DNA of 64,000 bases from Myxococcaceae bacterium (GTDB lineage: Bacteria > Myxococcota > Myxococcia > Myxococcales > Myxococcaceae), in assembly GCA_035296065.1 (NCBI GenBank), contig DATHBR010000035.1, positions 11,278 through 75,277 on the forward strand, read 5' to 3'. The translations under genes were made by a program, and so were the position numbers. Positions 37,802 to 51,570 of this stretch are shown here, in pieces (within the stretch, counting starts at the first letter, position 1; the number at the start of each line of letters is the position of its first letter). The notes under the pieces are model-generated. The model saw only the letters and a list, made by a program, of their open reading frames with translations, had not been told where the DNA came from and ran no database searches.

Positions 37802-38581
37802 ATGCTTCGCAACCTCCGAGAGCTCTACCTGTACCGCGGCCTGCTGCTGAGCCTGACGCAGCGGGAGCTGAAGGCGCGCTACCGGGGCTCGGTGCTCGGG
37901 TTCCTGTGGACGTTCCTCAACCCGACGATGCAGATGCTCGTCTACTCGCTGCTGTTCTCCGTGTGGATGCGGCAGAACATCGCGCACTACCCCTACTTCG
38001 TCTTCATCGGCCTGCTGCCGTGGATCTGGTTCACCACCTCCGTGGGCGGAGGCGCCAGCGCGATCAGCGACCGGAGGGATCTGCTCACCAAGGTGAGCTT
38101 CCCGGCCCAGGTGCTGCCGGCCACGGTGGTGGCCACTAACCTGGTCAACTACCTGCTGTCGCTGCCGCTGCTGGTCATCCTGGGGCTGCTCTTCGGCCAC
38201 TCCCCCACCTGGCACGTCGTCCTGTTCCCGGTGGTGCTGTTCGTGCAGCTATGGGTGACGCTGGCGCTGGCCTACCTGTTCTCGGCCATCAACGTGACGT
38301 TCAGGGACTTGCAGCAGATCCTCAACAACGTGCTGATGATGTGGTTCTTCGTCACGCCCATCTTCTACCGGGCCGAGAGCATCCCCGAGCACCTGCGGGA
38401 CGTGATGCTGCTGGCCAACCCCATGGCGGTGATTGTCACCTCCTACCAGGCCATCTTCTATGACGGGCGGGTGCCCGCGCTGGGGCCGCTAGCGATGTGG
38501 ATGGGCATCGCCGTGGTGCTGCTGTGGCTGGCCTCTGGAATCTTCGAGCGGCGCCGCGAGGAGTTCGCGGAGATCATTTGA
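37802..38581 (+). CDS. wzm: ABC-2 type polysaccharide exporter permease (Wzm/KpsM-like)
   Basis: Six-TM ABC-2 permease with the typical N-terminus (LTQRELKARYRGSVLGFLW). Confidence 0.9.
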   Translation: MLRNLRELYLYRGLLLSLTQRELKARYRGSVLGFLWTFLNPTMQMLVYSLLFSVWMRQNIAHYPYFVFIGLLPWIWFTTSVGGGASAISDRRDLLTKVSFPAQVLPATVVATNLVNYLLSLPLLVILGLLFGHSPTWHVVLFPVVLFVQLWVTLALAYLFSAINVTFRDLQQILNNVLMMWFFVTPIFYRAESIPEHLRDVMLLANPMAVIVTSYQAIFYDGRVPALGPLAMWMGIAVVLLWLASGIFERRREEFAEII

Positions 38582-38595
38582 GCGGCACGGAAATC

Positions 38596-49552: not shown

Positions 49553-51570
49553 GAGTGGATGAAGTCCTCGTAGCGCTGAATGGCCTCGGAGCAGAGGCGG
49601 GCCTCATAGCTGTCCATCATCTCCCTCAGCTTCTGGGGCGAGCTCTCCTGCAGCTCCAGCACGCGCTCGATGGCATCGCGCACGGCGCCCACCTGGTCCA
49701 CGCGGGCGATCTGGGTGAGCTGCTGGAACGGATGCTCATCCAACGCGCCCAGCCCCAGTGGGCCGGTGATGCAGGGCACGCGCAGCGCGAGCCCCTCCAA
49801 CGCCGTCATGGGCTGGCACTCGGACAACGAGGCATTGAGCACCACGTCCACCTTGCGCATGAACTGGAACAGCTCGCCGCGGCCCATGCTCTTGAGGCGG
49901 TGAACGGGCTTGGAGACGAGCTCCAGGCTCTCGGGCTGGCTGAACTGGGCCGTCACGTACACCTGGCCCACGCGCGGGGCCGCCATGCAGGCGTAGAGGT
50001 TGGTGTGGAAGTTCTTCCGCCAGTCATTGGGCGTGGGGATGAGGGCCGCGTCCGACCGGGCGCCCAGGGGCCTCATCATCCGTGCATCCACCCGGGGCGG
50101 GAGGTTGAGCAACGTCTTGGGGGAGATGTGGCTGGACACCAGGTGCATGTCCGGCTTCACGCAGGCCACGCCATTGATGATGCCCCGCGCGCGCAGCTCC
50201 ACCAGGCTGGCGAACGTCTCGTACTCGTGGGGGTAGTGGAACTGGGCCGACGAGCCGTGCCAGACGCCCAGGATGCGCACCGAGCGCTTGAGCGCCTTGC
50301 GCAGCGCCAGAATCAACGCGTGCGCATTGGCCGAGAAGCTGTGGATGACGACGACCGGTGAGCTCGAGTTGGCGCAGAACTCCACGGCCTGGCGCAGCTC
50401 CTCGGTCGAGAGCGGGCGCTCGGCGGTGATGGCCAGCTTGCGCCCGGGAGAGTAGCCCGCGGCCGCACGGATGCCGTACCACTGCTGGTGGAAGACGTGG
50501 AGCACTCCGGCCAGGCTGGGCGCGTGATGCGCCCACGTGATGTCCAGCGGCGCGTTGAAGAGCACGCCCGGCTGCGGTGCCTGCGCGGGGGCGGGCTCGG
50601 ACACCCGCGGGGGCTTCACCGACCGGTTGCGCAGCTCCGCCAGGTCCTCCGCCAGGGCGAACAGCCGTTGGCGGCGCTGGGTGCGCTCGGTCTCCACCTG
50701 GAGCCGCTCCTGCAGCTCATGGACCCGGTCCTCGACGCTGGTGGCCGCGTGCTGCAGGGCGTGCGCGGCCCCGGACGCCCACTTCGACAGCCGCGGCAGC
50801 CCCTGGAGCTTGAGGGCTTCCAGAGTGAGGGGCTGGGACTCGTCGCGCGCCTGCTCCGGCCCCCGCAGCTTGAAGTAGCGGCGGGCCTCGTCCCCATTGC
50901 GCTTGAGGACGTAGATGTCATGGGTGTCGATGAACTGCGCGCCGTGGTGGAGATCCCACCCCGGGGCCATCGCCTCGGCGAAGGACTGCAGCCAGCACCC
51001 CTGGTGCCTGGCGTTCTCCCAGACGCCAAAGGGGACGAGTTGGTTCTCCACCAGGCACATGAGCCCTTCGGGCCGTACCAACCGGCCCAGGTTCTCCATC
51101 ACCCGGGAGATGCTGTCCGAGGGGTTGTGGATCAGCACGGACACCGTGAACACCAGGTCGAACCGGCGGGAGCCCAGGGTGGTGAGCGGGTCATCGCCGA
51201 CGAACAGCCGCTCGTCCAACGGGCTCATGCCCGCCGGAGGCGCCTGCCGCAGGGGCGCCACCATGGGCTCGGACATGTCGAACCCGTGGTAGCGCACCCC
51301 CTCCAGCCCCGCGAGGTAGGAGGCATGGCGGCCAAAGCCACAGCCGAACTCGAGCACGTCCAACGGGCGGCCCAGACGCCGCTGCTCGGCCTGGATGAGC
51401 GCGGTGAGAAACTGCTCCTGCTGGCCGTAGGCGCGGTTGCCCTGTCCCATCCGGGTGCGGCTCATCTCCTGATAGACGGAGCCATCGAGGCTCTTCCAGT
51501 AGTGGAGGCTGCCGGGCTCCGGCGGGGGTTCCGATGACGACGTGACGGAGGGAATGATGGGTTCGCTCAT
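49549..51570 (-). CDS. Class I SAM-dependent methyltransferase fused to glycosyltransferase-like C-terminal domain
   Basis: VLEFGCGFGRHASYL SAM motif. The C-terminal half has a GT1/GT4-like fold. 4-nt overlap with the downstream GT. Confidence 0.8.
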   Translation of the reverse strand: MSEPIIPSVTSSSEPPPEPGSLHYWKSLDGSVYQEMSRTRMGQGNRAYGQQEQFLTALIQAEQRRLGRPLDVLEFGCGFGRHASYLAGLEGVRYHGFDMSEPMVAPLRQAPPAGMSPLDERLFVGDDPLTTLGSRRFDLVFTVSVLIHNPSDSISRVMENLGRLVRPEGLMCLVENQLVPFGVWENARHQGCWLQSFAEAMAPGWDLHHGAQFIDTHDIYVLKRNGDEARRYFKLRGPEQARDESQPLTLEALKLQGLPRLSKWASGAAHALQHAATSVEDRVHELQERLQVETERTQRRQRLFALAEDLAELRNRSVKPPRVSEPAPAQAPQPGVLFNAPLDITWAHHAPSLAGVLHVFHQQWYGIRAAAGYSPGRKLAITAERPLSTEELRQAVEFCANSSSPVVVIHSFSANAHALILALRKALKRSVRILGVWHGSSAQFHYPHEYETFASLVELRARGIINGVACVKPDMHLVSSHISPKTLLNLPPRVDARMMRPLGARSDAALIPTPNDWRKNFHTNLYACMAAPRVGQVYVTAQFSQPESLELVSKPVHRLKSMGRGELFQFMRKVDVVLNASLSECQPMTALEGLALRVPCITGPLGLGALDEHPFQQLTQIARVDQVGAVRDAIERVLELQESSPQKLREMMDSYEARLCSEAIQRYEDFIHS

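Follow-up and report, generated by a model that had tools for sequence, protein, structure and literature searches.

A rearranged locus of O-antigen type with a methyltransferase–glycosyltransferase fusion in a Hyalangium-like myxobacterium

Which glycan does a myxobacterial gene cluster make when it carries an exporter with a sugar-binding ATPase and, some kilobases away, a methyltransferase fused to a glycosyltransferase (GT), and what is the methyl group for? The cluster in question occupies positions 37802–51570 of a 64,000-nucleotide stretch of DNA from a Myxococcaceae bacterium (assembly GCA_035296065.1, contig DATHBR010000035.1, positions 11,278 to 75,277), here called the window. An initial annotation, made from the sequence alone, had proposed a glycan locus dependent on a transporter of the ATP-binding cassette (ABC) family, either of O-antigen type or for a distinct surface polysaccharide, and had suggested that the fusion enzyme (MT-GT) might cap the finished chain. 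Our analysis indicates that this is most likely a locus for assembly and export of lipopolysaccharide (LPS) O-antigen in a Hyalangium-like (Archangiaceae) myxobacterium, dependent on an ABC transporter and orthologous to the sasA/rfb genes of Myxococcus xanthus, but rearranged and without WbgA. The O-antigen of M. xanthus has effects on motility, on swarming and on the development of fruiting bodies, and the genes of its transporter have been known since 1996.

Results

Orthology with the M. xanthus O-antigen genes

Five genes of the window have full-length or nearly full-length orthologues in M. xanthus, namely wzm (37802–38581, + strand, 259 aa, the ABC-2 permease of a glycan exporter; 67% identity), wzt (start at 38578 or 38596, end at 39933, + strand, the exporter ATPase; 57%), GT_A (45085–47259, + strand, 724 aa; 57%), GT_B (47261–49552, − strand, 763 aa; 48%) and the fusion gene MT-GT (49549–51570, − strand, 673 aa; 51%). 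The order in M. xanthus is wzm (260 aa), wzt (437 aa, with Wzt_C), a 1275-aa protein composed of two GT2 modules and a WsaF-like GT4 module, MT-GT (684 aa) and GT_B (780 aa), with GT_A (750 aa) a few genes further on. This is the sasA/rfbABC region, comprising wzm (MXAN_4623), wzt (MXAN_4622), wbgA/rfbC (MXAN_4621), MXAN_4620 and MXAN_4619, and the same ABC-transporter-dependent route applies to both loci. Published work identifies MXAN_4621 as RfbC/SasA (PMC2129111), gives MXAN_4619 as a glycosyltransferase (PMC10196010) and establishes that the M. xanthus O-antigen needs Wzm/Wzt (PMC7484181); from the gene order we infer that the M. xanthus orthologue of MT-GT is MXAN_4620.

Genes for GT_A, GT_B, MT-GT, a WbgA-like protein, Wzt and Wzm, in this order, are also clustered in genomes of Archangium, Myxococcus and Corallococcus, so that the proximity of these genes is not due to chance. 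Together with the five-gene orthology, this conserved clustering argues for a locus of O-antigen type, the first of the two options that the initial annotation had left side by side, and its more general proposal of an ABC-transporter-dependent glycan locus agrees with both the domain assignments and the orthology.

The window departs from the M. xanthus arrangement in three respects: the 1275-aa WbgA, which directly follows wzt in M. xanthus, is missing; wzm–wzt is inverted and has moved across GT_A; and there is an insertion of three lipoprotein genes. In all, eight genes lie between 37802 and 51570. In a window of about 69% GC, genes were chosen by the GC content of codon positions, and the choice agrees with how genes are called in public contigs from this species; the G+C fraction at third codon positions (GC3) was of the coding type in the frames of the locus (0.83–0.95), with a lower value of 0.77 for the first lipoprotein gene. 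Gene positions and domain calls proposed earlier thus hold against Pfam, GC3 and the public gene calls. Because three metagenome contigs of this species, independent of one another, show the same gene order (95–100% identity), it is not an assembly artefact. Relative to a 98%-identical metagenome strain (contig L054), the ratio of non-synonymous to synonymous substitution rates (dN/dS) was 0.13, 0.19 and 0.30 for the three enzymes GT_A, GT_B and MT-GT (0.30 for GT_A and 0.19 for GT_B), compared with 0.07–0.14 for neighbouring genes; this purifying selection implies that the three enzymes are in use. A scan for promoters and terminators gave nothing beyond the expectation from shuffled sequence.

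A carbohydrate-binding domain on the exporter ATPase

Wzm matched the Pfam family ABC2_membrane (PF01061) with 72.1 bits against a cutoff of 26.9, and Wzt matched both ABC_tran (PF00005; 82 bits) and Wzt_C (PF14524; 76.9 bits against a cutoff of 30.4), the latter confirming the C-terminal extension of about 190 aa noticed at the outset. Two starts are available for Wzt, a TTG at 38578 (451 aa), which overlaps the wzm stop codon (TTGA in the sequence) and is chosen by the gene callers on same-species contigs, and an ATG at 38596 (445 aa). The best match in the Protein Data Bank (PDB) was the Aquifex aeolicus Wzt (8dku; E=3.7e-62), with TarH/TagH also matched.

Whether the extension has a jelly-roll fold had been posed beforehand as a test of the glycan-exporter reading. 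The domain itself comprises residues 275–445 and, with its linker, is encoded at 39418–39930 (+ strand); an AlphaFold model built on 64 homologues was all-β, with nine β-strands and a mean predicted local distance difference test (pLDDT) score of 93.3. When this model was compared with the PDB using Foldseek, ranks 1–17 were exclusively Wzt carbohydrate-binding domains (template modelling (TM) score up to 0.82), including 8dky (A. aeolicus with 3-O-methyl-mannose; TM 0.82), 5hno (Klebsiella/Raoultella O12) and 2r5o (Escherichia coli O9a), and the next fold class (NPC2, RhoGDI) followed from E=3.7e-5, four orders of magnitude weaker. The extension is therefore a genuine carbohydrate-binding β-sandwich of the Wzt_C fold, and the glycan-exporter reading withstands this test.

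The two halves of Wzt differ in their conservation. Relative to M. xanthus the ATPase domain is 75% identical and the binding domain only 30%, and relative to Hyalangium gracile the values are 92% and 71%; the binding domain thus evolves much faster than the ATPase domain, a pattern that would be expected for a serotype-specific reader. With 30% identity to M. xanthus, the recognised epitope probably differs between the two organisms. Aquifex WzmWzt (8dku, 8dky) provides the best sequence match of the ATPase domain as well as the best structural match of the binding domain, but the binding domains share only 18% identity. The Aquifex domain binds 3-O-methyl-mannose, a methylated terminal sugar (PMC9445017), and in a profile alignment its cap-pocket residues His350 and Trp362 correspond to Arg and Leu in the Wzt of the window. 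Since these residues are replaced, the sugar specificity of Aquifex is not transferable, and because pockets vary between serotypes the replacement is itself uninformative.

Glycosyltransferases and the methyltransferase fusion

GT_A combines a GT4 module (retaining type) with a GT2 module (inverting type), as seen from its Pfam matches (Glycos_transf_1, 102 bits; Glyco_transf_4, 43 bits; Glycos_transf_2, 113 bits) and from its D-x7-E (residue 310) and DAD (residue 508) motifs. GT_B is paralogous to GT_A along its full length (29% identity over about 690 aa) and has a clear GT2 module (Glycos_transf_2, 97.8 bits) and an N-terminal GT4-like module, whose Pfam matches were below the cutoff (25 and 22 bits); its motifs are E-x7-E (residue 322) and DAD (residue 505). 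The two bifunctional GT4–GT2 enzymes of the initial annotation are thus both present, the GT4 part of GT_B being recognised through paralogy and the E-x7-E motif.

The 3′ end of GT_B contains a 79-nt tandem duplication (47286–47364 and 47415–47493; 71% identity, 129-nt spacing) that encodes two copies of the motif LRHxxxDxxNxTLKRxPxVHxxLKxV, and a similar single motif ends GT_A. The duplicated motif probably forms an amphipathic helix that binds the membrane or a partner.

MT-GT was confirmed by Pfam and by structure prediction as an S-adenosylmethionine (SAM)-dependent methyltransferase fused to a GT. Pfam recognised a class I methyltransferase (Methyltransf_25/12/11/23) and, weakly, Glyco_trans_1_4, and an AlphaFold model on 68 homologues (pLDDT 89.9; predicted TM score (pTM) 0.84) gave a compact monomer with a methyltransferase domain at residues 20–235 (50866–51513), helices at 250–316, a Pro-rich disordered segment at 318–329 (helical linker and segment, 50566–50865, as delimited by AlphaFold secondary structure and pLDDT) and a GT-B domain at 336–671 (49552–50565, to residue 673), all on the − strand. 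The GT-B fold and a conserved E-x7-E motif place the C-terminal domain in the GT4 type, that is, retaining GT-B. Across the family, LEFGCGFG, D98 and D138 of the methyltransferase and R368, K378, K519 and N520 of the GT domain are invariant, and [E/D]-x7-E is conserved; both active sites look intact throughout. The linker measures 120–134 aa in Myxococcota and 132–190 aa in proteobacterial homologues; its helices comprise about 60 residues (258–316), and by a crude heptad score some 38 residues are weakly coiled-coil-like.

As a candidate member of the WbdD family, MT-GT was rejected: the similarity is not significant (E=0.03), no kinase was found with Pfam, NCBIfam or the model, the C-terminus is a GT-B domain in place of an amphipathic membrane helix, and no long coiled coil is apparent.

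Full-length orthologues of MT-GT occur in M. xanthus, M. virescens, M. fulvus and other species, and a GT_B-type gene of about 720–770 aa always adjoins the homologues in Burkholderia, Xanthomonas and Chelatococcus, its product being 35–41% identical to GT_B over nearly the whole length. The surroundings of this pair vary. In B. multivorans (L059) it is found with rmlBACD and a 237-aa Wzt without Wzt_C, in Xanthomonas sp. F4 (L060) the MT-GT homologue lies beside a 216-aa Wzt without Wzt_C, and in Chelatococcus (L061) the pair is located among respiratory-chain genes with no transporter nearby. Conversely, a binding-domain Wzt without MT-GT and without any Pfam methyltransferase was found in three myxobacterial loci (L001, L003, L007) and in H. 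gracile (L055). By an indirect comparison, the list of Wzt matches contains complete Archangium, Cystobacter, Stigmatella and C. coralloides genomes that are missing from the list for MT-GT. Scored in about a dozen loci, co-occurrence of MT-GT with Wzt_C therefore does not uphold an obligate pairing for the family as a whole.

Proposed pathway and the role of the methyl group

In the pathway that we propose, five GT modules would assemble the glycan on undecaprenyl diphosphate at the cytoplasmic face, two each from GT_A (GT4 and GT2) and GT_B (GT4-like and GT2) and one from the GT4-type domain of MT-GT. A flexible helical linker would tether the methyltransferase domain to the polymerase, where it would O-methylate sugars as the growing chain incorporates them; the analogy is with M. 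xanthus, in which about 60% of N-acetylgalactosamine (GalNAc) is 6-O-methylated. The carbohydrate-binding domain of Wzt would then grip the non-reducing end of the finished chain, Wzm/Wzt would export it, and a ligase encoded elsewhere would join it to lipid A-core. Gene content, domain folds, orthology and purifying selection are demonstrated; the sugar substrates, a methylation mainly within the chain and the target of the binding domain are the conjectural elements of this scheme.

Several observations weigh against an O-antigen pathway of this form. According to the established paradigm, a Wzt with a binding module exports only terminally capped chains, the terminator being distal to a coiled coil and the polymerase GT modules residing in the same or in partner proteins (PMC11231755); as the methyltransferase is the only non-GT modifying activity of the locus, this favours a cap over pure in-chain decoration. 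The structures nearest to the methyltransferase domain are generic small-molecule class I methyltransferases, a fold that does not settle between a sugar and a non-sugar substrate. Among the larger open reading frames of the window that were scanned, none encodes a priming enzyme, a ligase or sugar-nucleotide synthesis. Neither wbgA nor a remnant of it was found in the window, where tblastn with four WbgA-like queries, including that of H. gracile, at relaxed E-values gave only generic GT2 similarity in GT_A and GT_B. In M. xanthus, O-antigen reportedly depends on WbgA (Guo et al. 1996). Its absence may mean that the polymer differs or that wbgA is located elsewhere in the genome.

The strongest alternative concerns the methyl group. 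The methyltransferase domain might cap the non-reducing end, thereby stopping elongation and creating the epitope that Wzt recognises before export, with the linker serving as a molecular ruler that separates the terminator from the polymerase modules; precedents are K. pneumoniae O7 ORF6 and O12 WbbB, E. coli O8/O9a WbdD and Geobacillus WsaE. Beyond the paradigm just cited, in which all characterised terminated systems pair a binding module with a terminator distal to a coiled coil, this possibility draws on the genuine Wzt binding domain and its nearest structure, the Aquifex domain with 3-O-methyl-mannose, on a methyltransferase, helical spacer and GT in the same order as in ORF6 and WsaE, on a spacer that varies by 70 residues among homologues while the catalytic domains stay constant, and on the absence from the window of WbgA, the other candidate carrier of a terminator.

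The precedents themselves resemble MT-GT in part. In ORF6 and WbbB an N-terminal modifying or terminating domain is followed by a helical spacer and one or more C-terminal GT modules, alongside Wzm and a binding-domain Wzt as in the window (PMC11231755; compared by description), whereas MT-GT has neither a kinase nor an internal carbohydrate-binding module, carries one GT4-type module rather than two of GT2, and has a short, weakly coiled-coil spacer of about 60 helical residues. WbdD of E. coli O9a/O8 and MT-GT share a class I SAM methyltransferase within an ABC-transporter-dependent pathway with a binding-domain Wzt, but WbdD combines it with a kinase and a long coiled coil and recruits a separate polymerase through a membrane helix at its C-terminus, whereas MT-GT ends in a 335-residue GT-B domain of its own. 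WsaE of Geobacillus stearothermophilus, an enzyme of S-layer glycan synthesis encoded directly after wzm–wzt, likewise has an N-terminal O-methyltransferase fused to GT domains and is proposed to make the 2-O-methyl cap that Wzt reads (PMC2943079; likened by description); unlike MT-GT, it has two rhamnosyltransferase domains and acts on a protein-attached rhamnan. The WbdD-like methyl-cap terminator of the initial annotation is plausible, the layout of terminator, spacer and GT being in keeping with it; membership of the WbdD family fails.

Set against a capping role is the composition of the M. xanthus O-antigen, which consists of α-glucose and α-GalNAc (Glc-GalNAc6OMe) with about 60% of the GalNAc 6-O-methylated (PMC9535733). 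The MT-GT orthologue is the sole methyltransferase in the M. xanthus locus. The repeat reportedly elongates at O-4 of GalNAc and not at O-6 (MacLean et al. 2007), so that O-6 would not be the elongation site. The distribution of the genes described above also speaks against it, both where MT-GT homologues stand beside a Wzt without Wzt_C or without any transporter and where a binding-domain Wzt stands without MT-GT; the binding domain of the window is far more similar to that of H. gracile, whose locus has no MT-GT, than to that of M. xanthus, whose locus has one. The short helices with their weak heptad signal, the compact monomer model and the lack of significant similarity to WbdD point the same way. 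We therefore hold a dedicated terminal cap to be a possible but somewhat doubtful reading, and a chain-decorating O-methyltransferase tethered to the polymerase to be at least as likely as a WbdD-style terminator. For the methyl group as such, a signal for export or termination, perhaps in addition to decoration, and decoration of the chain only are equally plausible, each falling a little short of an even chance, and a different role altogether is unlikely.

The enzymes downstream of wbgA, including the MT-GT fusion, appear uncharacterised in the literature searched. MT-GT and GT_B form a widely conserved pair that occurs without WbgA and whose link to a cap-reading Wzt is not obligatory. These findings pose a sharp question for M. 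xanthus, namely whether the methyltransferase of MXAN_4620 is needed only for the methyl groups or for export as well.

Mosaic structure of the locus

The closest relative of Wzt is that of H. gracile (83% identity; Wzm, 84%). At the DNA level, window positions 37736–39941 aligned with positions 9143–11346 of the H. gracile locus (L055) at 86.6% identity over 2209 nt in blastn, the homology having sharp limits, 66 bp before wzm and 8 bp after the wzt stop codon. Outside this block the two loci differ, and a WbgA-like gene directly follows wzt in H. gracile. For GT_A, GT_B and MT-GT, in contrast, the closest named relatives are those of Archangium genomes (71–76% identity), where Wzt is only about 57–61% identical. 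With wzm–wzt nearest to Hyalangium and the GT genes nearest to Archangium, the locus is a mosaic, and judged by sequence similarity wzm–wzt can be regarded as a discrete 2.2-kb Hyalangium-type cassette (+ strand) on the far side of GT_A.

The GC fraction drops to 0.66–0.68 over window positions 38000–44000, which hold wzm–wzt and the lipoprotein genes, relative to about 0.69–0.71 elsewhere; this dip is compatible with a recombined or recently acquired segment. Insertion sequences or flanking inverted repeats were sought as a cause of the rearrangement, and only repeats due to the GT_A/GT_B paralogy and to the propeller repeats of the second lipoprotein were found.

One scenario would be that, after loss of WbgA, the polymerase and O-methylation module was re-paired by recombination with a Hyalangium-type wzm–wzt. 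The methyltransferase, linker and GT4 unit with one or two GT_B-type partners would then be a conserved module of Myxococcota, Burkholderia, Xanthomonas and Hyphomicrobiales that works with or without a cap-reading transporter. We consider this rather unlikely; if it were true, the binding domain would read a glycan made by a different set of enzymes than in its closest relatives, and the locus would amount to a natural experiment on the modularity of cap recognition.

Hyalangium species also vary among themselves, the H. versicolor locus encoding a 2048-aa GT and a 1129-aa protein with methyltransferase and GT parts. Such variation is usual for O-antigen loci. This high variability, the missing WbgA, the 5 kb of unrelated genes that separate wzm–wzt from the GT genes and the lack of a ligase or priming gene nearby could also be taken to mean that the product is a surface glycan other than LPS O-antigen (capsule-like or protein-linked), or that the locus is a partly disabled remnant left after the loss of wbgA, with the true O-antigen genes elsewhere. 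Against this stand the five intact glycan genes under purifying selection, their stable arrangement in three contigs and the one-to-one orthology with the O-antigen genes of M. xanthus. There, too, the genes for priming enzyme and ligase reportedly form a locus apart (Pérez-Burgos et al. 2019). We thus judge this alternative improbable and retain assembly and export of O-antigen as the likely function; in other respects the locus is an ordinary, variable and correctly annotated O-antigen locus belonging to a known type of system.

The WbgA-like proteins of related loci carry N-terminal regions of 320–570 aa ahead of the two GT2 modules and the WsaF-like GT4 module (L052, 6111–7130; L008, 16567–17526; L003, 15144–16853). 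A WbgA-like N-terminus of about 320 aa matched nothing in Pfam, and the 700-aa N-terminal segment of the WbgA-like protein of L007 gave only GT2-type and chance matches in the PDB. Since the binding-domain Wzt of myxobacteria constantly has WbgA as its partner, the N-terminal region of WbgA is a candidate terminator or ruler.

Lipoprotein genes between wzt and GT_A

Three genes separate wzt from GT_A: Lipo1 (40142–41110, + strand, 322 aa), Lipo2 (41131–42966, + strand, 611 aa) and Lipo3 (42968–44971, − strand, 667 aa). They had been described as three secreted lipoproteins, and all three products indeed have signal-peptide-like N-termini; a lipobox is clear in Lipo1 (APGC, residue 17) and Lipo3 (ALGC) and atypical in Lipo2, which is therefore better called a predicted secreted protein or lipoprotein. 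Codon usage is atypical (GC3 of 0.77–0.86 versus about 0.9 in neighbouring genes). The M. xanthus locus contains no counterpart of any of them, and homologues of Lipo1 and Lipo3 were absent from all related loci that were examined. Lipo1 is an orphan that matched nothing in Pfam, NCBIfam or the PDB.

Lipo2 contains β-propeller-like repeats (Rax2 propeller, 31.4 bits), mirrored by internal DNA repeats of about 117–120 nt, and a 58%-identical homologue occurs in one related locus only, that of an Archangium genome (L008), where it lies about 5 kb away from GT_A. Another region of the window (15832–16590) shows weak similarity to the propeller repeats (29% to the L008 homologue of Lipo2), a resemblance that suggests a multi-copy family of the Lipo2 type in this genome.

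Lipo3 is composed of an N-terminal Ig-like region and a C-terminal putative right-handed β-helix. It had no significant direct match of any kind in Pfam or NCBIfam or among PDB sequences; among 1.84 billion representatives there were four close homologues and 16 relatives, and its distant relatives P0231, P0234, P0238 and P0239 carry Beta_helix, DUF1565 or NosD, so that the β-helix assigned to this protein finds its backing in distant relatives rather than in a direct match. In the 98%-identical metagenome strain, Lipo3 (L054, 13406–14054) is without residues of about 172–618, that is, the whole putative β-helix region, and 274 aa are left.

The three genes are thus probably lineage-specific inserts and not conserved parts of the pathway. 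That they are functional partners, for instance through a β-helix glycanase in the periplasm or at the surface that would trim the polymer after export, could be read from their position and signal or lipobox features, from the glycan-active enzymes among the β-helix families in distant relatives of the Lipo3 C-terminus and from the Lipo2 homologue near GT_A in Archangium, yet the missing counterparts in related loci, the deleted β-helix, the atypical codon usage, the tiny Lipo3 family and the weakly similar propeller region elsewhere in the window make this very unlikely, and the earlier suggestion that the β-helix lipoprotein might trim or bind the polymer is not supported.

Neighbouring genes

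On one flank the locus is bordered by genes for an EEP phosphatase, a CPBP protease, an esterase and a glyoxalase, and on the other by genes for an S58 peptidase, an alanine/sodium symporter and a P450; all are unrelated to glycan synthesis. About 5 kb upstream of wzm, a gene at 30857–33145 (− strand) encodes a 762-aa homologue of the eukaryotic Major Vault Protein (MVP), with matches to MVP_shoulder (153.9 bits), Vault_2 (112 bits), Vault (104.8 bits) and Vault_3 (76.7 bits); earlier work has described MVP homologues of bacteria, myxobacteria among them (bioRxiv 10.1101/872010). A further gene at 28707–29423 (− strand) encodes a 238-aa protein whose N-terminus is histone-H1-like (HC2) and rich in Lys/Ala and whose C-terminus carries a pair of EF-hands.

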